Origin: a virus | Lineage: Duplodnaviria; Caudoviricetes | Virus record (IMG/VR): IMGVR_UViG_3300016472_000312 | Span: 1-35,604 of that record | Direction: 5' to 3' (one strand) | DNA: 35,604 bases | Shown here: piece after piece, positions 1 to 35,604 of the stretch | How positions within the stretch are numbered: position 1 is the stretch's first letter | How the letters are laid out: the number at the start of each line of letters is the position of its first letter | The notes under the pieces: model-generated | What the model saw: the letters and a program-made list of their open reading frames with translations, nothing else | Told to the model about the DNA's origin: nothing | Databases searched by the model: none | Position numbers and translations under genes: made by a program

Positions 1-21
1 AGCGAAATTTGGAAATCGAAA
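1..21. repeat. 21-bp terminal direct repeat (circular overlap), copy 1
   Basis: agcgaaatttggaaatcgaaa at 1-21 is identical to 35584-35604. Confidence 0.97.
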
Positions 22-10446: not shown

Positions 10447-10706
10447 ACGCTACAAAAAAATTCAAAACCCCGCCCAAGTTGGCATTCCTGAACGAATGCC
10501 ACACAGAGTATAAAGTTTACCTATACGATGAGAAAAGCTGGAATGAGGCTTTTGACGGAACTCACGAAACGCTAGAGGAAGCTAAAGATTTTCTGGCTAG
10601 ATGGTATCCTGAATTGCCACAATCGTATACCGCAATTGTGGCAATCAAGATAACAAAGACTGTATGCTGCTTGTTTCCAAATGCTCAGACTGTTTATTCA
10701 GTTTGA
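10443..10706 (+). CDS. Hypothetical protein
   Basis: 87 aa, ATGA-coupled to rusA. Confidence 0.6.
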   Translation: MNATKKFKTPPKLAFLNECHTEYKVYLYDEKSWNEAFDGTHETLEEAKDFLARWYPELPQSYTAIVAIKITKTVCCLFPNAQTVYSV

Positions 10707-10887
10707 GCATTTTTTTTTGCAAACTTAATCGTCTTGCCTGAAGCGCATCAATGCGCTCCAGTTCGTTTGTTGTCGATATTTCAACCGCTGCCGTTTGCGT
10801 CACACCGTAATAAGCCGCAATTGCGGCTATTTTGTCGATTGCGGATTTGTCAAAACGATAGTTGACCGATATACGTGATGTCGTCAT
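10645..10887 (-). CDS. RHH-like regulator with coiled-coil tail
   Basis: RISVNYRFDKSAIDKIAAIAAYYGVTQTAAVE; divergent from 10958 gene across an AT-rich spacer. Confidence 0.6.
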   Translation of the reverse strand: MTTSRISVNYRFDKSAIDKIAAIAAYYGVTQTAAVEISTTNELERIDALQARRLSLQKKMLKLNKQSEHLETSSIQSLLS

Positions 10888-11278: not shown

Positions 11279-11354
11279 ATATCAGCTTTTAGCACTTAAA
11301 ACCAATCACGCGCAAAAGCAGTTGCAAAAATATCCAATTAATTTAAAAATAAAA

Positions 11355-12413
11355 ATGGAAAAAGAAAAATTCGATCTAAAAAAGGCAATTCCCGCCGTGC
11401 TGGATGCGGTGATTGAGTTCGTTTCGCCGGCGTTTGACGCCAAATACATACCGTTCTGGCTGTCGCTGTCCGGATGCTGTCTTGTGGCACTGGCATACAA
11501 GGCGGTATACGATTTGTTCAGAAATCATATTGGGGTAAACGAAATTACCGCAGCAATGGACGCATTCGCGTCAGTCGGTATCTTAAGCGTGTTGCTTGTG
11601 GTCGTGGTCGCGGCAAAAAATAACGCGGTAAAAGGCATGGGTTATTTACTAATGTCGGGCTGGATGCTGCTTACGTTTGCACTTGTGTCGCTTGGGTCTG
11701 TGTTGGGCAATAACAAAAATCTAGAAGTGCCTGAAGCGTTGGTCGGCTTGGGCAAAGCCGTAGCGGGTCTACTACCAGCGCTGGCACTTGTGCCAGTTCT
11801 CACAATGACAATTGCCAATGCCAACAAAAACGAATTTCCCACCGCATCGGCGGCGGCTGGGCATTATTTTGGCTTTGTGCTGAAACTGGTCATGATTGGG
11901 GCGAGTATATTCTCGAACGTTTATTTCGGCCTATCTCGCAACATTGCGCCTATCGTCGCATTGCTATGCGGTGTGTTGCTCGAGTCGTTGTTTGTTTGGG
12001 CATTGTTTAAGCTAATTGATGCAACCCAACGCAAAGACCGGTTTGATGTGATTGTTTGGTCAATCATGATCGTGACCACTGGCTTCTTTTTGGCGTTTGT
12101 TGGCATTGAGACGGTATCTACGTTGTCGCGGATTCAGATACCCGCGATTGTGGCCATGCAAGAAACGGGCGCTTTGATTTACGTTAGCGCGATAGGCATC
12201 GCCTTTGCCCTAACAATCATTGCCCAATTGACGACCAGCCTTATCGACTGGCTGCCGTCCTACGAGGGTATCAAATCCGGCGCTAAGTCATTAGGCGCAA
12301 ATGTGGCAAAAGTAAAAATGCCAACTCGCAACGCATTGCCGGCCGCCGCCGTATCGTTTGCGGCTGATTCGGTTGAGACTGTGACAATTGCAGAGAACGA
12401 TTTCCCAAAATAG
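11355..12413 (+). CDS. Polytopic membrane protein (about 8 TM helices, possibly 2x4)
   Basis: Eight hydrophobic segments by eye; ends NDFPK* on a slippery sequence; ATG 11355 preferred. Confidence 0.8.
   Translation: MEKEKFDLKKAIPAVLDAVIEFVSPAFDAKYIPFWLSLSGCCLVALAYKAVYDLFRNHIGVNEITAAMDAFASVGILSVLLVVVVAAKNNAVKGMGYLLMSGWMLLTFALVSLGSVLGNNKNLEVPEALVGLGKAVAGLLPALALVPVLTMTIANANKNEFPTASAAAGHYFGFVLKLVMIGASIFSNVYFGLSRNIAPIVALLCGVLLESLFVWALFKLIDATQRKDRFDVIVWSIMIVTTGFFLAFVGIETVSTLSRIQIPAIVAMQETGALIYVSAIGIAFALTIIAQLTTSLIDWLPSYEGIKSGAKSLGANVAKVKMPTRNALPAAAVSFAADSVETVTIAENDFPK
12401..12410 (+). other. Candidate −1 ribosomal frameshift site
   Basis: Overlapping in-phase heptamers T TTC CCA and C CCA AAA immediately before TAG; −1 frame continues into ORF 12428..12781. 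Confidence 0.6.
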
Positions 12414-12427
12414 CCGGCGGGTCTACT

Positions 12428-12781
12428 GTGGAGTTTGGTAATGCTAGTGATCAAATGCCAAACTCCACAAGTGACATTAACCCGCCTGTAACACTAGATA
12501 AAGAATTTACAAAACTGTTTGGCACTGATTCGGAGGCACTACCAAACTACAATGAAGCACTACCAAGCCCACGCAAATGGCGGCGCGAAGTTGTTAAAAA
12601 AGGCGATAGGGTTGCCTATTGGATTTGGAGGCGTGGAACTGGCCCCGCCCGTCAGAGTTTGAAAGGCGGCAAATTTGGAGAATTAGATGAGCAACGAAAG
12701 GCAGAGTATGACCGCAACGTCGAGCGCAGAGCAAAAGGCAAAGCTAATCGCGAAGCCAAAAAACAAATCGCAAGCAAGTGA
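12428..12781 (+). CDS. Basic, Trp-rich putative DNA-binding domain; probably C-terminal frameshift extension of the membrane protein
   Basis: RKWRREVVKKGDRVAYWIWRRGTGPARQSLKGGK; no clear RBS, GTG start buried in a 14-bp stem. Confidence 0.6.
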   Translation: MEFGNASDQMPNSTSDINPPVTLDKEFTKLFGTDSEALPNYNEALPSPRKWRREVVKKGDRVAYWIWRRGTGPARQSLKGGKFGELDEQRKAEYDRNVERRAKGKANREAKKQIASK

Positions 12782-12980
12782 CGAACAAAACGCAGTCACA
12801 AAACAAGACGTTTTAGACATGGTCACAAGTGTTATTGGCTATTTGCGTAAGGCTGGCGTAGATGTATCAATTCGTAACCACCCCGAACTAGGCGCAATTG
12901 TGGCAATAAAAGGCGTAGGAGCTTATACCAACGATATTTTTTTACCACTACCAAACCAAAATACAGCACTACCAAACTAG
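12687..12980 (+). CDS. Hypothetical protein
   Basis: GGAG RBS 6 nt before ATG; C-terminal LPN repeats are encoded by the DNA motif. Confidence 0.6.
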   Translation: MSNERQSMTATSSAEQKAKLIAKPKNKSQASDEQNAVTKQDVLDMVTSVIGYLRKAGVDVSIRNHPELGAIVAIKGVGAYTNDIFLPLPNQNTALPN

Positions 12981-13019
12981 CAAAGCGGTTTGGTAGTGCT
13001 GCCAAATAAAAATAAAAGT

Positions 13020-13505
13020 ATGAAAATTATTTACACCAAAAAAGGAGAGGCAATAAAAGTAGATGATGAAGACTACCAAGCCCTCTCTAAACGCCCTTGG
13101 CACATTCATACTGAGGGCTATGCCAAGTCTTATTACAGACAAAACGGAAAACCGACTAGTGTTTATATGCACCGTCTTTTGATGTCGCCCCAAAAAGGCT
13201 TGGTAGTAGATCACATTAATGGCGACAAAACAGATAACCAAAAATCTAACTTGAGAATTTGCACAATAGCAGAGAATATAAGAGGCGCAAAGTTAAGTAA
13301 TAAAAATACTACGGGCTGCAAAGGCGTAACAAAAATAAGCGGTAAAAGCAAGTGGGTCGCAACGATAAGGGTAAATTTTGAAAGAATTTGCCTAGGAACA
13401 TTTGACAATTTTAACGATGCTGCAAGCGCATACAAAAGCGCATCTCTAAAATATCATGGCATTTACTCACCTTATTGCAAGCCAAACGAACTACCAAACC
13501 AATAA
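13020..13505 (+). CDS. HNH-AP2 homing-endonuclease-like protein
   Basis: VDDEDY, YMHRLLM, VDHINGDKTDNQKSNLR (HNH_3), GCKGV...KW.A.I...LG.F...AA.AY (AP2). Confidence 0.92.
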   Translation: MKIIYTKKGEAIKVDDEDYQALSKRPWHIHTEGYAKSYYRQNGKPTSVYMHRLLMSPQKGLVVDHINGDKTDNQKSNLRICTIAENIRGAKLSNKNTTGCKGVTKISGKSKWVATIRVNFERICLGTFDNFNDAASAYKSASLKYHGIYSPYCKPNELPNQ

Positions 13506-13536
13506 TTTGGCACTACCAAACTTAACGCCTTACGCC

Positions 13537-13669
13537 GTCGTTTGGACATCGTGCCAAACTTAATAGCAGTTAGTAGCAAACGTTAGCGGCAGTTAATAGC
13601 AGTTAGTAGCAAACGTTAGCGGCAGTTAATGGCCACAGATTCAACAGTCGTTTGGACATCGTGCCAAAC
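13537..13669. repeat. Two 23-bp direct repeats enclosing a 33-bp tandem duplication
   Basis: GTCGTTTGGACATCGTGCCAAAC at 13537 and 13647; TTAATAGCAGTTAGTAGCAAACGTTAGCGGCAG at 13560 and 13593. Confidence 0.9.
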
Positions 13670-13834
13670 ACCCGACGGCAAACAGGCAGTAACGCGCCAA
13701 ACCGTGCGCGATGTCCAGTTTTTTATTCTAGAGTCGTGGGGGTGGGTCAGGGCTTGCCCTCACGCGGAGAAACAATTCAGACTATCACGCTGGCAACAGG
13801 GGTGCAAGTTGCCAAACGTGGCAGAAATTAAACC

Positions 13835-13963
13835 ATGAAAAAGATAAAACTCAACAGGCGCAAACTCTTGCGCCGAGCCAAGGGGCAAACAAAAGCGAAG
13901 TGGCGCAAGCCACGATTCAGTAGTGTTAAAGCGGTGCTCTCCCAGATAGGCACAGGCCAATAA
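13835..13963 (+). CDS. 42-aa very basic peptide
   Basis: MKKIKLNRRKLLRRAKGQTKAKWRKPRFSSVKAVLSQIGTGQ*. Confidence 0.35.
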   Translation: MKKIKLNRRKLLRRAKGQTKAKWRKPRFSSVKAVLSQIGTGQ

Positions 13964-14082
13964 AACAAAAACAAGGAACAACAAAATGGAATACGTAAAG
14001 AACTTAGAGGAAATTGCGAATTATCAAACTACGGAAAAATACCGCATTCCGCATATCGCGTAGACAAAAAGTTAATCAAAAA

Positions 14083-14322
14083 ATGACACCAACTCACCGC
14101 CGCTATCACCACTACCTAACGTCTCTCCGCTGGCGCATCCGCAAAACGATCGCCAGCGTATTGCTATCACCGTTTATTGGAAGGCGTTGCATCATGTGCA
14201 ACGCCCCGCGTAGTGACTGGCATCATCGGCACTATGGGAACGTTGGCAATGAGTTGCTATTACGCGATATCGTGCCAGTGTGCCGCAGCTGTCACAAGAA
14301 ATTTCATAACAAACTAACATGA
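14083..14322 (+). CDS. Small HNH endonuclease (Zn-binding)
   Basis: Y..YL.S..W...(K) lead, CIMC, HHRHY...GNE, VCRSCHKKFH. Confidence 0.8.
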   Translation: MTPTHRRYHHYLTSLRWRIRKTIASVLLSPFIGRRCIMCNAPRSDWHHRHYGNVGNELLLRDIVPVCRSCHKKFHNKLT

Positions 14323-14554
14323 AAACCAAAACCCCCAATTACGCATATTGCCGAATCCGTTACCCGCTACCCTAGCGCTGGCTGAATGGTAATACGCCCA
14401 CTGACCCACGCCGTGATATTTCCCTGCCCGCTGGTGCATGTGATTTTGATACTACGATCACCGTGCCATTCATTAAGCGCCAGAACCGAATCGCGCAATA
14501 TGCTTGATGAAACTGCTACAACATTGAAGTAAAATTAAATTTGCAACAAAAATC

Positions 14555-14800
14555 ATGCGAAAACCTCCCCCAGCACCCAACAAACCAATCGCTGCAAAAG
14601 CAATCGAGTTTGGCGACCAAAATACGTTGTTTATTTCTGTCGCCAACATTGAACAACTAGCAGATGTAATTGATCAATGTCGAGAAATTGGAAGAATTGA
14701 GAAAATTCAAGACGCGCCAAAGGCGTTTTATTGCCACGTCTACATTAATTACACGTCCGACCAAATGCCCGATTTAATTGCATGGGTAGAGAGCATGTAG
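14555..14800 (+). CDS. Hypothetical protein, last gene of the + arm
   Basis: 81 aa ORF whose stop abuts the tail gene stop. Confidence 0.65.
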   Translation: MRKPPPAPNKPIAAKAIEFGDQNTLFISVANIEQLADVIDQCREIGRIEKIQDAPKAFYCHVYINYTSDQMPDLIAWVESM

Positions 14801-16939
14801 TTAGTCATCGCCCGCAACGGCAATCGGCTGGATGGTTAAGCGTTCCTCGGTTTTGCCAGTTATCAGCCCCTGCCCGCCAGTGCATCTAATCTCAATATCG
14901 TGATTACCGCGCCAGTCTGACATATTTTGCAGCGCGGTAATCAGCGATACGTAATATGTCCCAGCCCCGCTAACCGTGCTACCCGCAAACTGGCCAGTGT
15001 CATAATTTTTTATTTGCGTGATCTGAACGCCATTGAGCCAGATGGATACACCGCTTGGAGTAACACTATCTTCGATGACACCGAATACTATTGCATGTGT
15101 GTGGTCTGATACTGAGTGTGTGTGTGATGCAATCGTAATAGAAACGCCATGCGAATGATCATTCAAGTTTACCGAATGCGAATGAACCGGCACGGAGTGC
15201 GAATGATTCATATCTGGCACTGAATGTTGATGACCATTTGGGCCTGCAAAATGAGAATGATTGTAAAAGCCGGGCAAACCGTTGTAAATGCTAGTTGTGG
15301 CTTCAATGCCACCAGTTTTTGAATAATCGAAACCTGTAACTGTCGGCGTGACCCCCGACGACCAACTCCCAACACCAAACGTTCCACCACCCCCTACGCC
15401 CGATGTGGTTTGAGTTCCGCCTCCGGCCGCGCTTGTTGTTGTTGCCGCCTGCCCACCGCCGCTACTCGTTGTCGCGCCGCCGCCCGAAGCGGTGTTGTTG
15501 CTGGCATATGACACCAGCGGGCCAAGCCTGAACACAAATTTGACAGCGTTCAATTCCAGAACTGCTGCATCATATTTCAATTTGCAGACGTAGTTCACTC
15601 CGTTTTTGATTGCTTGCGTGTGGAATGATTTTTCTCTCAATGTCATGCTTGGGGCCGGCCTGAGCTTAAAGCGTTTTGCATCGCGTATCAACTCTGTCGT
15701 GACCTCTGTCTGTTCCGCGAATGTTTCGCCAGTTGTCGACACAGTCAATGTGGCACGTGCCAAACCGCCAATGTCGTCAAACTCACGCGAAATTTCAGAC
15801 ACGAACAAACGCATTTTGTTAAGTGCCAATTTCACTTTTCTAACACTTGCGTTATTTGCGTCTATCACTGTTGCGACATCACGATAATCCACCTCGACTA
15901 CGCTGCCACACGATACGGAGTTTGGAAGCCCTAGCACCGACAATGTATAGTTGACAAGGGGCTTACGTGATCTGAGCAGATAGGCCACCGCCGCCGAATA
16001 AAGCGCGTTACCCGCATTCAGCAAATCGGCCTTTGAATTTGTGATTGGCTTAACATCAAATTGCACCGTTGCCTCATTTAGCCCATGTTCCGCGATACTA
16101 CTAGAATCCTCAATGTAATATTCTCGCGTCTTTGCACCCGCGTCATTAGTGCCATTTGCGTTGCTGCCGTCCCAGTTGCCGCGGCTCAAAACGGGGTAAG
16201 GTGATGTTAGATCGCTGTATTTAAGCGATAATTGCGCTACGCCCAGCCCTTGGCCCAATCCGATCACGCGATTTATGATCGTGCTGCTGTCCTCGCGCAC
16301 CGTCATGCTTTCAATTGCAATATCTCTGTTCGCGGTAATTCGCCAACCCGCAGCACTGGCCACGCTGATAAATCGCGCTGCAATGCTGCCAGTCAGCCGC
16401 GAATCTAGCCATCTGCCGTATTTGATTTGCTTGTCGCCCGATAGCGCAAACCAACCAGCGTTTGAACGCCTTGCCTGCTCAATTAACTGGAAATACGACT
16501 CACCGGCAGTGTCATAAGTGAAATCGTAAAAATCACTCGAGCTATGGTCAGTCGTTGCGGTCCACCCGTTACCGTATCTTGACATAATTGCGTTCATGTC
16601 CTGAATGAACGTTAGACCGCTCAACGCCCAATTGAAGCCTACAGTTTTTCGCGTCAATTCATAAAATTGATCGTAACAGGTGACGCTTAATAAATCTCCA
16701 TCCTCGCTCAACTCGTTAGACAAATGGTAGAACGTTCCAATCAAACCATCGACATAATGATACAGCTTGTATATCTTGCCGCGCCCAATGCCGCGATCAA
16801 GTGCCACAAGTTGTGGCACAGTGAAGCGCAATTCGCCTAGCCGATTGACGCGGCTCGTGATACCAACGCCGCTAATTTGCGTAATGGTATTTAATTTTGC
16901 GCCTGCTGCGTTGTAAATATCAAGTCGAAATGCGCTCAT
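14801..16939 (-). CDS. Baseplate hub (Tal-like) protein with C-terminal HxH-repeat needle domain
   Basis: Position after Dit and tail genes; IINRVIGLGQG...YIED..SIAEHGL.E hub motif; seven HxH motifs near the C-terminus. Confidence 0.75.
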   Translation of the reverse strand: MSAFRLDIYNAAGAKLNTITQISGVGITSRVNRLGELRFTVPQLVALDRGIGRGKIYKLYHYVDGLIGTFYHLSNELSEDGDLLSVTCYDQFYELTRKTVGFNWALSGLTFIQDMNAIMSRYGNGWTATTDHSSSDFYDFTYDTAGESYFQLIEQARRSNAGWFALSGDKQIKYGRWLDSRLTGSIAARFISVASAAGWRITANRDIAIESMTVREDSSTIINRVIGLGQGLGVAQLSLKYSDLTSPYPVLSRGNWDGSNANGTNDAGAKTREYYIEDSSSIAEHGLNEATVQFDVKPITNSKADLLNAGNALYSAAVAYLLRSRKPLVNYTLSVLGLPNSVSCGSVVEVDYRDVATVIDANNASVRKVKLALNKMRLFVSEISREFDDIGGLARATLTVSTTGETFAEQTEVTTELIRDAKRFKLRPAPSMTLREKSFHTQAIKNGVNYVCKLKYDAAVLELNAVKFVFRLGPLVSYASNNTASGGGATTSSGGGQAATTTSAAGGGTQTTSGVGGGGTFGVGSWSSGVTPTVTGFDYSKTGGIEATTSIYNGLPGFYNHSHFAGPNGHQHSVPDMNHSHSVPVHSHSVNLNDHSHGVSITIASHTHSVSDHTHAIVFGVIEDSVTPSGVSIWLNGVQITQIKNYDTGQFAGSTVSGAGTYYVSLITALQNMSDWRGNHDIEIRCTGGQGLITGKTEERLTIQPIAVAGDD

Positions 16940-17685
16940 TCAGCAATAATCCTAAAAAACACATTAATAGTATTCCCGCCAACAATGAATTGCGAGTTAA
17001 CTCTGTAAATCTCGCCAGCGGCTAACGTGCCAATCTTTGGCAAAATTAATTTACCACTTGATATACTGAGCGAGCCAAACGAAGCAGTTTTAGTTACGTC
17101 TGAATTGTCGCTTTCCTTAACTATCGTTGTCGAGACAGCCGTCTTGCTCGTTCCCATGTCGGACAAAGTTTCCACAACGTAAAAAATTTGATCGTTGGCT
17201 TGCTGCCTGATTGGAGAGTCAATTAACTCACCCGATTGGCTCTCGAGTCGTCCACGCATTCTTAGTGTCACAAAATACGCTGCAACTGAGATATCCGCCT
17301 GAATTGAACCGATGCCAACGACTTGAGATGATGAAAGTTCGTGAGCAATTCTCAAAGATGCATCAATTGTGCCAACTGCATTAATACTGGAGACGAATAA
17401 ATAATTGAAATCTGCTGTAATTTGACCAGCGCTCGATAAAACTGCCGAAAATTCAGACGAGATAGTCGCCTGAATTTGGCCAACGCCCGAAATTGTTGAG
17501 TCTAATCTTGCAAAAAATGCGAGCGGGGCAACAATTGTTGCTTGTGCGCGTTGCCCCGAATACATCAAACGAACATCAGTACCCCAAAACCCCGTTCCAA
17601 TTTGAATAGAAAGAATCTGGCCAGATATGCGAGTGATCGCCGAAGGTTTGATTCGACCCGGATAGGCCCTGAATACTGCTTTCAT
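16936..17685 (-). CDS. Minor tail / virion structural protein
   Basis: Repeated G.G.I.A beta motifs; coupled to neighbours in the tail module. Confidence 0.55.
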   Translation of the reverse strand: MKAVFRAYPGRIKPSAITRISGQILSIQIGTGFWGTDVRLMYSGQRAQATIVAPLAFFARLDSTISGVGQIQATISSEFSAVLSSAGQITADFNYLFVSSINAVGTIDASLRIAHELSSSQVVGIGSIQADISVAAYFVTLRMRGRLESQSGELIDSPIRQQANDQIFYVVETLSDMGTSKTAVSTTIVKESDNSDVTKTASFGSLSISSGKLILPKIGTLAAGEIYRVNSQFIVGGNTINVFFRIIAE

Positions 17686-17688
17686 TTT

Positions 17689-18480
17689 TTATCCTTGCAC
17701 AATCTGAATAGTGCCGTGAATAATGCCCGTCGACGTGCCGCTGCATAACAGCGCCGCGCACAAATGTGCGTTTGTGTTTACGTCTGGCATACCAATTGTG
17801 AAAGTATCCATGACAGCTGCTACGTTTGTCGCGTTTAGTGGTATGTCTGCGATACGCTTAAGCAAAACTATGCCAAAACTTCCAGCAGTGCCCGTGCTTG
17901 CACTAAGCAAAACTTGTGTCGTGCTACGTACGCCCATGTCACCCGCTGCCAAAGCAAACGGTATCATTTGACCCGCTACAGTTGAGGCAGGTATAGTTGT
18001 TGTCGCTAAACGATCACTAACGCTATTGTTGTTAGTGTATGTTGTAGTTGCAGTAACCGATGTTGCGCCAATGGCAGTATAAATTTCCATCCACATCTCA
18101 ACGCCTAGACCATCAGTGTATCGAGTAAGTGACGGCTGTGTCCATGTTTGCGCCGTAGTTATCGTGCCATTTAAGCCCGAATTGTGCCACAGGCGATCAT
18201 ATAGCATGAGCGTACCCTGAACACTTCCAGCGATTACAGCCTGAGCCAGATAATTTACATTTGTACCGCTTGGCGCTGGAAAGGTGATGCCCCCCGCGGT
18301 TGTCATGATTGGTATTTCACCGTTGGTAATTGGCGGGGTGTTTCCTACGCCGGGCTGCCCCGCAACTTGCCGCAACGAGTGATACCGTCCGGCTGCTTGC
18401 GATGTGGCTGTTGTTTTCATGAACGGCAAACGATAGCCCGGGCTTGCAGATAGTAGTTGGTCTAGTGATTGTATTGCCAT
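17689..18480 (-). CDS. Putative virion structural (tail-associated) protein
   Basis: Thr/Gly/Ala-rich, LMLYDRLWHNSG; tail module position. Confidence 0.55.
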   Translation of the reverse strand: MAIQSLDQLLSASPGYRLPFMKTTATSQAAGRYHSLRQVAGQPGVGNTPPITNGEIPIMTTAGGITFPAPSGTNVNYLAQAVIAGSVQGTLMLYDRLWHNSGLNGTITTAQTWTQPSLTRYTDGLGVEMWMEIYTAIGATSVTATTTYTNNNSVSDRLATTTIPASTVAGQMIPFALAAGDMGVRSTTQVLLSASTGTAGSFGIVLLKRIADIPLNATNVAAVMDTFTIGMPDVNTNAHLCAALLCSGTSTGIIHGTIQIVQG

Positions 18481-18482
18481 TT

Positions 18483-18887
18483 TTATAATACCTTACAAAT
18501 TAATGTTCCGGACGCAAATCCTACGGGGTCGTTTGTGTTTACGACTCGTTGGGCCGATAACGCGCCATACATCCACAGGTTACCACCTGTGGCCGCGTCA
18601 TAAATCCCCACGTGCTTGACCGTTCCCCACGAACCGCCCGCTGTGCCAAAGTCAATGGTATCTGTGTTTCTAGCCTCGCCGGTAACAGAATCAGTATTCC
18701 ACTTTGCAACAATTACCTGCTTCCGCGAGTAGCCAGTTCCTGATACCTCCGTCACGCTTGAAGTTTCGCCGTCCGAAATTTCATTGAACAATGCGACATA
18801 AATACCGTCGCCCAAAGTCGATAAACTCGTGTTGCCAAAAATGGCTTTAATTATTTTGTTTTCTGCGTAATTTGTAAATGCACTCAT
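18483..18887 (-). CDS. Tail fibre-associated protein, paralog 2
   Basis: TNYAENK...YVALF...EVSGTGYSR...I.FGTA..SWGTV.H.GIYDA.TGGNL phage tail-fibre family pattern. Confidence 0.7.
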   Translation of the reverse strand: MSAFTNYAENKIIKAIFGNTSLSTLGDGIYVALFNEISDGETSSVTEVSGTGYSRKQVIVAKWNTDSVTGEARNTDTIDFGTAGGSWGTVKHVGIYDAATGGNLWMYGALSAQRVVNTNDPVGFASGTLICKVL

Positions 18888-18899
18888 TTTTTTAATTCC

Positions 18900-19490
18900 T
18901 TATGGATAATATATTGTCCCGTCTGGGTCTCCTACTGGTAATAGATCAATGGTAAGCAGGTTAAAATTTAACAACCGCAATGGATAGGTTTTGCCGACTC
19001 CAATCATCAACGTGCTTAATTCATGCGATGTCGGCTGGGTGACAATGCCTTGAATGACTGAAATATCCGTGCTGACAACCGGATCGCCTTGGTTTACGCC
19101 AAACAAAAGGGTGTTGGCATTAAAAATAACTGGATCACCATTGTTAATCGTACGCGACAACGTTAATGAGCTGACCGCCAAAAGATTTCCAGCGATCAAA
19201 GCGTCATATATGCCAATAAATGATACTATTCCCCAACTGCTGCCTGCTGTGCCAAAAGAGATATCTCGCGTGTTTCTCGCTTCTCCAATGAATGACGTGT
19301 CCCAATTGGCTGCCGGAACTTGCCGCCGCCGATAGCCTTTGCCGGAAATTTCAGTCACAATTCCAGCATCAGGATTGATAGCCGAGTTTAGCAAACCAAT
19401 ATAAATATTATTGCCAAAACCCGCAAAGCTTTGATTGCCAAAAATGGCTTTAATTATTTTATTCTCGGTGTAGTTTGTTAATGCTGACAT
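18900..19490 (-). CDS. Tail fibre-associated protein, paralog 1 (with C-terminal extension)
   Basis: Colinear similarity to 18483..18887 over about 130 aa. Confidence 0.7.
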   Translation of the reverse strand: MSALTNYTENKIIKAIFGNQSFAGFGNNIYIGLLNSAINPDAGIVTEISGKGYRRRQVPAANWDTSFIGEARNTRDISFGTAGSSWGIVSFIGIYDALIAGNLLAVSSLTLSRTINNGDPVIFNANTLLFGVNQGDPVVSTDISVIQGIVTQPTSHELSTLMIGVGKTYPLRLLNFNLLTIDLLPVGDPDGTIYYP

Positions 19491-20237
19491 TTATAACCAC
19501 GTATGATTGTATTTAATTGCACCCGTCACCGGCTGGTTGAATTGCAATTTGTTCCAACCAGATTCAAGTTTCATTAATTCTATTTGCGAGTCGGGTATAG
19601 TCATATTGCCGTATGCGTTTGCGCCATTAACCGTTACCGTGCTAGCGAAACCATCAATTATTAGCGTTTGCCCTACCGCCTTTGCTGCATCATAGGTCAA
19701 CGCATAACCGTTTCGCGCGTTTGAAATTATAAGCGGTTTTGTTATTTGGCTTGAAACCTCAATTTTTATGTTAATACATTCCGCGTTACCCGCATTTGCA
19801 CAAGACGCTTCAAGCGCGTTTGTCAAAATTCTAATTTGTTGCGTTTCCTCGCGCCAAAACTGATCACTTTCAAACTCAAACGTAATCGGTTGCGCCATGC
19901 TTGCCGTGCTTTGGTTGTTATTCTCTGCTTTGCAACTAATTAATATCGCCTCACAGCAACGAATACTACCATCGCGCATTTTTTGTCGCAATGTACTAGT
20001 TACGCCAATCATTCTCCGCAATTGATCAATATTTCGATCAACGTCATATTGATATATTTGATTGCGCAAAAATAACCCACTAGCTGTATATTTGCGCGTC
20101 TCATGTTTTGTGCCAAGAACATAACTACCAACACGACCACCAGCAACCGCTACACGTGATACGGCAGCCGAGGCCGGAATTTCGTACGCTGCCATGCGAT
20201 CAGGCAAGGCGATGCCGCCAAAATCAAGCAACTGCAT
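19491..20237 (-). CDS. Distal tail protein (Dit-like)
   Basis: Immediately after TMP; F.S.DQFW, NAGNA, L.L.SG.N.L.F pattern. Confidence 0.7.
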   Translation of the reverse strand: MQLLDFGGIALPDRMAAYEIPASAAVSRVAVAGGRVGSYVLGTKHETRKYTASGLFLRNQIYQYDVDRNIDQLRRMIGVTSTLRQKMRDGSIRCCEAILISCKAENNNQSTASMAQPITFEFESDQFWREETQQIRILTNALEASCANAGNAECINIKIEVSSQITKPLIISNARNGYALTYDAAKAVGQTLIIDGFASTVTVNGANAYGNMTIPDSQIELMKLESGWNKLQFNQPVTGAIKYNHTWL

Positions 20238-22774: not shown

Positions 22775-23007
22775 CGTTTACTGCGTTGCTCTGCAATTTT
22801 GTTGTTCGCTGCTTCGTATTGTGTCAATAATGTCCAGACGCGCATCAAATCGCCGTAATCTTCTTTCATCAACTCGGATGGCAATTTGTGAAACCTATCG
22901 CACATCTGAGCAAATACAAGATCGTCGGGGTATTCAGTCGTTACCCCAGCGGCTAATTTTTGGAGTTGACGGGCCTCGCTACGGCTAACGCCGTAAGTGG
23001 TAAAAAA
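22771..23007 (-). CDS. −1 frameshift extension of the tail assembly chaperone (gpGT-like C-terminal part)
   Basis: Opens at T TTT TTA (23007-23001); FTTYGVSRSEARQLQKLAAG...MCDRFHKLPSELMKED...RSKR*; stop overlaps TMP ATG. Confidence 0.8.
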   Translation of the reverse strand, partial: FFTTYGVSRSEARQLQKLAAGVTTEYPDDLVFAQMCDRFHKLPSELMKEDYGDLMRVWTLLTQYEAANNKIAEQRSKR

Positions 23008-23276
23008 ATTTCATTGAAATAGGTCAGCGCTGGCATTGATATCTCAATGGGCAATTCGTTTAGCACATCGCCGCTGATTGGCAATTTCTCGCCTTGCTCA
23101 TCGACAATCGACCAATCAACGATAAGCAAAGCGAGAATATCAGCATTTTTCTTTCCGCCTGTTGACAACGCCTCAGCATCGTGCATTTTTGCACGGCGAA
23201 TATCAATCCATTCTTCACTATAGTCGCCTGTGCCAAAAATGCGCTTAACTTGCGGTTTACCGTATACGTATGCCAT
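22953..23276 (-). CDS. Tail assembly chaperone (gpG-like)
   Basis: LIVDWSIVDEQGEKLPI motif; between tail tube and TMP genes. Confidence 0.85.
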   Translation of the reverse strand: MAYVYGKPQVKRIFGTGDYSEEWIDIRRAKMHDAEALSTGGKKNADILALLIVDWSIVDEQGEKLPISGDVLNELPIEISMPALTYFNEIFLPLTALAVARPVNSKN

Positions 23277-35567: not shown

Positions 35568-35604
35568 ATGACATACGAACAAAAGCGAAATTTGGAAATC
35601 GAAA
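35568..35604 (+). CDS. 5' part of the junction-spanning early gene
   Basis: MTYEQKRNLEIE continues at position 1. Confidence 0.8.
   Translation, partial: MTYEQKRNLEIE
35584..35604. repeat. 21-bp terminal direct repeat, copy 2
   Basis: Identical to 1-21. Confidence 0.97.

Follow-up and report, generated by a model that had tools for sequence, protein, structure and literature searches.

Does the locus at positions 11355-12781 of the tailed-phage record IMGVR_UViG_3300016472_000312 hold one gene or two? The window, i.e. the whole 35,604-nucleotide (nt) stretch that we analysed, encodes there a membrane protein and, in the −1 frame, a small basic domain rich in tryptophan, which we call the W domain. 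An initial annotation, made from the sequence alone, had proposed a hidden −1 frameshift joining the two. Our analysis indicates that programmed −1 frameshifting at this locus is very probably real. We also consider it likely, from the sequences compared, that one gene gives rise to a membrane protein of 352 amino acids (aa) and to a 475-aa form extended by a linker and a putative DNA-binding tail, which would tether phage DNA to the membrane. The argument turns on the following features.

11355 to 12413, + strand: membrane protein gene (family A), 352 aa, about 8 predicted transmembrane (TM) helices, possibly two 4-TM repeats; the zero-frame product.
12401 to 12407, + strand: heptamer T TTC CCA, overlapping the next; incidental, lost in close relatives.
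12404 to 12410, + strand: slippery heptamer C CCA AAA, in phase, abutting the stop.
12411 to 12413, + strand: zero-frame stop TAG.
12377 to 12781, + strand: open −1 frame; shifted ribosomes would translate 12410-12781 (123 aa, a variable acidic linker and then the W domain).
12416 to 12486, + strand: predicted stimulatory hairpin, 5 nt past the heptamer, hiding GTG 12428 and a sequence like a Shine-Dalgarno (SD) element.
12578 to 12781, + strand: W domain, WRxEV..GKYWQWRRG..R.YGGKF..L..ER..Y, basic, with three strands and one helix predicted.

The membrane open reading frame (ORF) ends GAT TTC CCA AAA TAG. As the initial annotation had described, T TTC CCA and C CCA AAA are both in phase and the −1 frame is open from 12377, and the computed reading frames give its two product lengths, 352 and 475 aa. 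We do not take T TTC CCA for the working site; it looks incidental, because only C CCA AAA is kept in close relatives, i.e. L005, L039 and the contigs of runs X6 and X10 read GAT CTC CCA AAA. Downstream of the stop, GGCGGGU at 12416-12422 pairs with 12480-12486 beneath an upper stem (mean pairing 0.99), and the whole hairpin reaches −35.9 kcal/mol (z −5.4), with 0 of 200 shuffles equally stable. The stem had been placed 16 nt from the heptamer in the annotation, which is not so; the lower part of the longer stem begins 5 nt after C CCA AAA, and therefore the worry about a 16-nt spacer is gone and the spacing is canonical. A stem-loop behind a 5-9 nt spacer is the textbook −1 signal (PMC7618472). 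We propose that ribosomes would pause at the hairpin and that the Pro and Lys tRNAs would slip from CCA AAA to CCC AAA, the stop being bypassed.

The case for frameshifting rests on conservation, because the fold and heptamer controls within the window, given below, are modest. Loci encoding the W domain came from a W profile (48 proteins), from viral contigs scanned for the motif, and from genomes searched by profile, the genome searches matching in 5/401, 4/50, 5/13 and 6/401, with overlaps. Before any count we excluded a false match (L001), duplicate contigs (L003, L009, L010, L024-L026, L029 and L030), L028, which is identical to L027, and the 8 of 13 motif-scan matches without a W-profile match; L035, a weak match containing a stop, looks like chance and was also rejected. 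The statistics over 21 loci further omit L033 and L034, near copies of L032.

At 23 of the 25 W loci the W frame is −1 relative to an upstream ORF with several TM segments, whose stop follows an in-phase X XXY YYZ heptamer by 0-24 nt. A search for the +1 arrangement gave three upstream ORFs, none with a TM segment. All 21 non-redundant loci have an in-phase heptamer where 1.1 would be expected (background 22 in 6421 codons), i.e. CCCAAAA in 9, CCCAAAC in 6, AAACCCT in 4, and AAAAAAA and AAAAAAC in one each. The hairpin reaches z <= −2 at 19 of the 21 loci (60 shuffles each), and the −1 frame of L043 and L037 opens right at the heptamer. The relatives L002 and L004-L007 end differently, namely A AAA AAA TAG in L002 (an A7 run, at 38% identity), C CCA AAA CCG TAG in L004, C CCA AAA TAA in L005, C CCA AAA TAG in L006 and C CCA AAA GGC GCG TAG in L007, where the contig ends. 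All five have an open −1 frame, reaching the same W-rich domain where complete. Between L002 and L004 all 24 of 24 hairpin pairs are kept, 9 of them by double change (2/500 shuffles as high), in a comparison of two sequences only with a structure derived from the same pair; between L005 and L039 it is 19 of 19 pairs, 2 by double change. The conserved heptamer, stop, −1 frame and hairpin across the W loci strongly support the programmed frameshift that the initial annotation had suggested.

The cassette stands behind more than one kind of membrane protein. The proteins upstream of the W domain fall into five BLAST groups, which comprise one 8-TM family and 4-TM families. The 4-TM groups are loosely related to each other (hhalign 95% and 85%), and profile comparison detected no relationship between them and the 8-TM family. 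Judged by their sequences, two unrelated membrane superfamilies share the frameshift cassette, and different heptamers behind unrelated genes are not explained by shared descent of one sequence alone. Searches with family A returned 12 and 59 relatives. PK occurs within the last 12 residues in 43 of 60 full-length family A proteins (~2 expected), and 4 of the 17 without terminal PK carry an in-frame C-terminal CxxC..CxxxC zinc finger.

The 352-aa protein itself has 7 segments by hydropathy, one fewer than the 8 TM helices first claimed, and its AlphaFold model (residues 1-312, pLDDT 89) has 10 helices and is compatible with 8. An internal repeat between its halves is weak (E 7.6e-4, probability 25%). 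Pfam and PHROG hold no family for the membrane protein or for the tail, tblastn gave no match in annotated phage genomes, and the best match in a sequence search of the PDB was at E 0.016. The best fold match of the membrane domain (Z 8.2, rmsd 6.5, 113 aligned) is ordinary for helical bundles, and the best ESM Atlas score, 0.81 to an unnamed cluster, is a lead only. These absent sequence and fold matches, like those of the W domain given below, are evidence neither of a new fold nor of unrelatedness. Ahead of the membrane gene's ATG lies an A-rich leader at 11279-11354 with no SD, and relatives in runs X4 and X8 miss 48-76 nt of that leader.

Several observations weigh against a programmed frameshift. 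At least equally good folds occur in 5 of 1778 80-nt windows of this genome, and an in-phase heptamer falls within the final 60 nt of 8 of 47 window genes, so the heptamer by itself says little; a long −1 frame plus a late heptamer is found among the 47 only in the membrane gene and the tail chaperone. The 21 loci form 5 groups, with the window, L005 and L039 at 83-95% identity, and the computed 10^-29 overstates the odds because they are not independent. No in-frame fusion of membrane protein and W domain occurs among 10 longer W-profile matches. L037 and L040 have no stable hairpin (z 0.0 and 0.1), L045 is uninformative, being low-complexity at a contig end, and L044 keeps the last codons of the membrane gene, C CCA AAA and the W domain, with the membrane body lost. 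In L008 (420-606), a 606-nt low-coverage contig outside the 25-locus count, CCCAAAA lies at codon position 1, out of phase, and the W-like tail is in the +1 frame. Its zero frame looks genuine since P0044 ends with the same residues, and for L008 we consider a +1 variant, a decayed copy or an error. The shift may also be inefficient, because C CCA AAA shows Y = C in its alternative forms and its last codon is AAA. In E. coli, AAA in the context A_AAA is less prone to shifting than AAG, and C_CCA_AAG shifts very readily (PMC5009743).

What would the extension do? We find it somewhat probable that the tail binds nucleic acid, because of the basic W domain, its fold model, its weak match to an arm domain, a T5orf172 fusion and a zinc-finger swap. 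The W domain has 22 K/R, 9 D/E and 3 W in 68 aa, and its model is beta3-alpha (pTM 0.50). Its commonest weak Pfam match, in 4 of 45 members, is the integrase arm-DNA-binding domain (Arm-DNA-bind_3, PF13356). In P0128 the W domain is C-terminal, behind a T5orf172/MUG113 (GIY-YIG-like) domain. In L027, a 4-TM member, C CCA AAC would shift into a zinc finger in the −1 frame with no W domain, and a zinc finger apparently can substitute for the W domain, in frame or by the same shift. Counting the other way, the PF13356 match is below cut-off (best E 0.0014, 19.2 bits against a cut-off of 27), and the hairpin of L027 is weak (−19.2 kcal/mol, without a shuffle control). The W profile scored 0.3% probability against three arm-binding domains, with a shallow template; fold searches of the W domain gave a best Z of 3.6, and Foldseek against PDB and BFVD gave none at E <= 0.001. 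The DNA-binding tail of the initial annotation is therefore plausible as something we infer from these fits.

A third gene overlaps the W domain.

12687 to 12980, + strand: third gene, 97 aa, with its own SD (−6.4 kcal/mol), sharing 95 nt with the end of the W frame and lying in the membrane gene's frame.

The third-gene profile matches at 21 of the 25 W loci, counting the 9 from which it was built, and where read the gene is in the membrane gene's frame with its start usually inside the W coding region. Complex prediction of the W domain with the third protein scored 0.01 and is not used as evidence. Near the end of the third gene, at 12938-12998, there is an in-phase T TTT TTA followed by an inverted repeat, with a −1 frame of only 23 aa, and alleles diverge at 12966.

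The short and long forms may co-assemble, with a fixed fraction of the subunits carrying the tail, and the third gene could act as a helper; these two steps are the less supported ones. The tail would anchor the element's DNA at the host membrane during replication, a specific role that we put forward only tentatively, by analogy. The heptamer, stop and hairpin together may serve as a junction for exchanging tails and membrane domains. A broader picture, in which phages and integrative elements of Chloroflexota use a portable cassette to form mixed oligomers, most subunits being plain and building a channel or platform while a set fraction bear an exchangeable tail (W domain or zinc finger) that grips DNA and moves it along the membrane or across the septa of a filamentous host, the L008 run perhaps being read +1, is speculative and improbable.

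In gene order, the module lies in the early region of this phage. The first 21 nt of the window (1-21) are repeated at its end (35584-35604), which makes it probably a complete genome in circular assembly, and the window is probably a whole tailed-phage genome. The − strand carries the virion genes and the + strand MT-A70, Thy1, RecT, initiator, DnaB and RusA genes, and the membrane/W module lies near the end of the + strand block, downstream of RecT, initiator, DnaB and RusA. On the + strand, 1287-2465 encodes a ParB-like domain fused to an MT-A70 methyltransferase. A small ORF at 10645-10887 (− strand) opposes the operon direction and has a weak match to an Rv0623-like transcription factor (E 2e-4), and small opposite-strand ORFs near the module are also seen in L004 and L005. 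The same phage has a classic frameshift of the G/GT type, since its tail chaperone gene (22953-23276, − strand) holds an in-phase T TTT TTA at 23007-23001 with a −1 frame of 78 aa that reaches the start of the tape-measure gene.

The host of the window phage is likely a Chloroflexota bacterium. A Chloroflexi genome names one member of the membrane protein's 90% protein cluster, a Thermoflexales genome holds fragments, and a genome of that order also has a 94.6% identical copy (L039), with the caveat that those short contigs are possibly binned phage. The copies L034, L036 and L046 are on chromosomes of several megabases. Profile A2 of the membrane family, run on 401 genomes of the phylum, matched only in the centre genome. 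The metagenomes with this DNA come from freshwater, aquaculture, estuary and wetland, and only 5-16% of the window's words are present in the RNA runs. Of six chromosomal contexts, some are prophages that carry virion genes, others are small elements encoding primase and integrases, and one has relaxase-like genes; the module is not virion-specific, since small non-virion elements are among them. In L051 the prophage copy of the module has a type III-B CRISPR Cmr operon (13195-19818) a few kb away.

Other readings keep the frameshift and change the task of the tail. It could bind protein or RNA instead of DNA, for example the third-gene product, which is consistent with the third gene accompanying the W domain and not being found behind the L027 zinc finger. 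We judge this unlikely, since the positive charge with surface aromatics, the T5orf172/GIY-YIG-like fusion and the zinc-finger interchange fit nucleic-acid binding better.

The main rivals to a membrane anchor are an SpdB2-like spreading channel and a tethered regulator. The former, which we regard as rather unlikely, would pass DNA across the cross-walls of a filamentous host, with the tail gripping the DNA. Many Chloroflexota are filamentous, and the module consists of 4-TM units and is carried by prophages as well as by small non-virion elements, next to the relaxase-like genes in one case. Against such a channel, DUF2637, which we take to be the family of SpdB2, has no match in 60 family A members (E <= 0.1) or 5 family B members (E <= 0.5). 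FtsK/TraB was found neither among 111 neighbouring ORFs (>=130 aa) in six 20-kb loci nor among 30 scanned window ORFs, the elements being only partly covered. SpdB2 itself is an oligomeric 4-TM pore-former that binds double-stranded DNA (dsDNA) and has actinophage homologues, as reported in PMC4447253.

It is similarly doubtful that the tail, held at the membrane, regulates transcription or integration and excision as kin of integrase arm-binding domains. The arm-domain match mentioned above points this way, as does a large serine recombinase gene directly downstream of the module in L053, L054, L055 and L044, which are small integrated elements that also encode primase and tyrosine integrase. 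No integrase was found among the 30 window ORFs scanned, a subset of all ORFs, and in other contexts replication or packaging genes adjoin the module instead.

Without any frameshift, a separate small W protein could start from GTG 12428 or ATG 12455 by translational coupling, with ribosomes stopping at 12411 melting the hairpin. The initial annotation had seen no clear ribosome binding site for the W ORF, which is a weak argument because the SD-like GGCGGG (−5.5 kcal/mol) precedes GTG 12428 and the membrane gene itself lacks an SD at its ATG. It was correct in that the GTG is buried, both start and SD-like element being paired in the stem. This SD-like element counts against frameshifting, some ATG, GTG or TTG precedes the W core in 19 of 21 loci, and the W domain persists without a membrane body in L044. 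However, coupling requires neither the fixed −1 relation nor the in-phase heptamer, and L044 retains C CCA AAA and the last codons of the membrane gene. Ahead of the W core there is no ATG in 8 of the 21 loci and no ATG, GTG or TTG in two (L015 and L023), and neither the start position nor the SD of the tail is conserved among them. We therefore hold coupled translation of a separate protein to be very improbable.

The reads were also compared for an indel at the site. Run X1, possibly the source of the record and not counted as independent, spans the stretch with zero differences. Contigs from three other studies cover 12384/12393 onward with no gaps among the indel rows listed, and in four further runs the sole indel listed over 12300-12560 is an in-frame +3 at 12341. 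The overlapping contigs of other studies thus show no assembly indel at the heptamer. Two reservations count on the opposite side, namely that all of the read evidence is assembled DNA contigs and that in no contig from an independent study is the heptamer flanked by 31 letters left and right, although the overlapping ones cover the site. An assembly error, a broken gene or transcriptional slippage, for which these reservations and the A7 run of L002 could be cited, is largely refuted by the gap-free contigs, the same break in 23 loci with different sequences, the 20 of 21 heptamers that are not homopolymers and the 3' hairpin kept at ribosomal spacing. Several contigs stop at 12416, where the summed depth falls from 164 to 33 (X6) and from 203 to 26 (X10), and a loose contig end there matches the L039 allele. 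The contig ends and the depth drop indicate that strains share the membrane gene through its stop and diverge 3 nt after. The linkers of the window, L005/L039 and L006 alleles differ, and every one folds with a stem starting 5-7 nt past the heptamer.

The favoured explanation remains a membrane protein of which some copies are extended by frameshifting into a putative DNA-binding tail. To our knowledge, phage frameshifts are mostly known from virion-assembly genes; here a non-structural membrane module repeatedly makes use of it, after unrelated membrane families and ahead of exchangeable tails, which suggests selection on the subunit ratio and not on one protein. Gene callers annotate each such locus as two hypothetical proteins, so that databases lack the real product. 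C CCA AAA, C CCA AAC and A AAC CCU are uncommon natural shift sites with covarying hairpins and are easily assayed, and the module points to an unstudied route by which Chloroflexota phages may handle DNA at the membrane. The −1 frameshift mechanism is known, and its use in this membrane module was not found described before in the literature searched, including the available part of PMC3711429, which does not mention the module; large recoding catalogues could list it.

The known system closest to the favoured role is phi29 p16.7, a phage membrane protein recruiting viral DNA to the membrane during replication; this is a functional analogy only, and the available text of PMC4974454 mentions no recoding. 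Streptomyces SpdB2 is likewise a 4-TM integral membrane protein of mobile elements and some phages that binds dsDNA, differing by the lack of a DUF2637 match here, and PMC4447253 mentions no frameshift for it in the part available. The PF13356 arm domain resembles the W domain, as modelled, in its three strands and helix, and also in its basic character and a similar aromatic pattern; unlike it, the W domain falls below the cut-off and is not attached to an integrase. The E. coli dnaX shift truncates its product, whereas here the shift would extend it, and the proteins of dnaX and IS3 are unrelated to those here. In dnaX tau/gamma and the IS3 family, as proposed for the present locus, bacterial ribosomes shift to −1 on Lys codons and a stem-loop lies 3' of the site (stem-loop stimulators in PMC7618472 and PMC5009743). 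An upstream SD stimulator is absent from the window (−2.9 kcal/mol) and present in some loci. Lambda gpG/gpGT, the virion-assembly case of frameshifting, also has its heptamer close to the 3' terminus of the gene and sets a ratio of short and C-terminally extended products (PMC5009743). Unlike the lambda gene, which lies between the major tail and tape-measure genes, the window membrane gene lies in the early/replication region of the + strand, and it differs further in being a multi-TM gene with a strong 3' hairpin and exchangeable tails.
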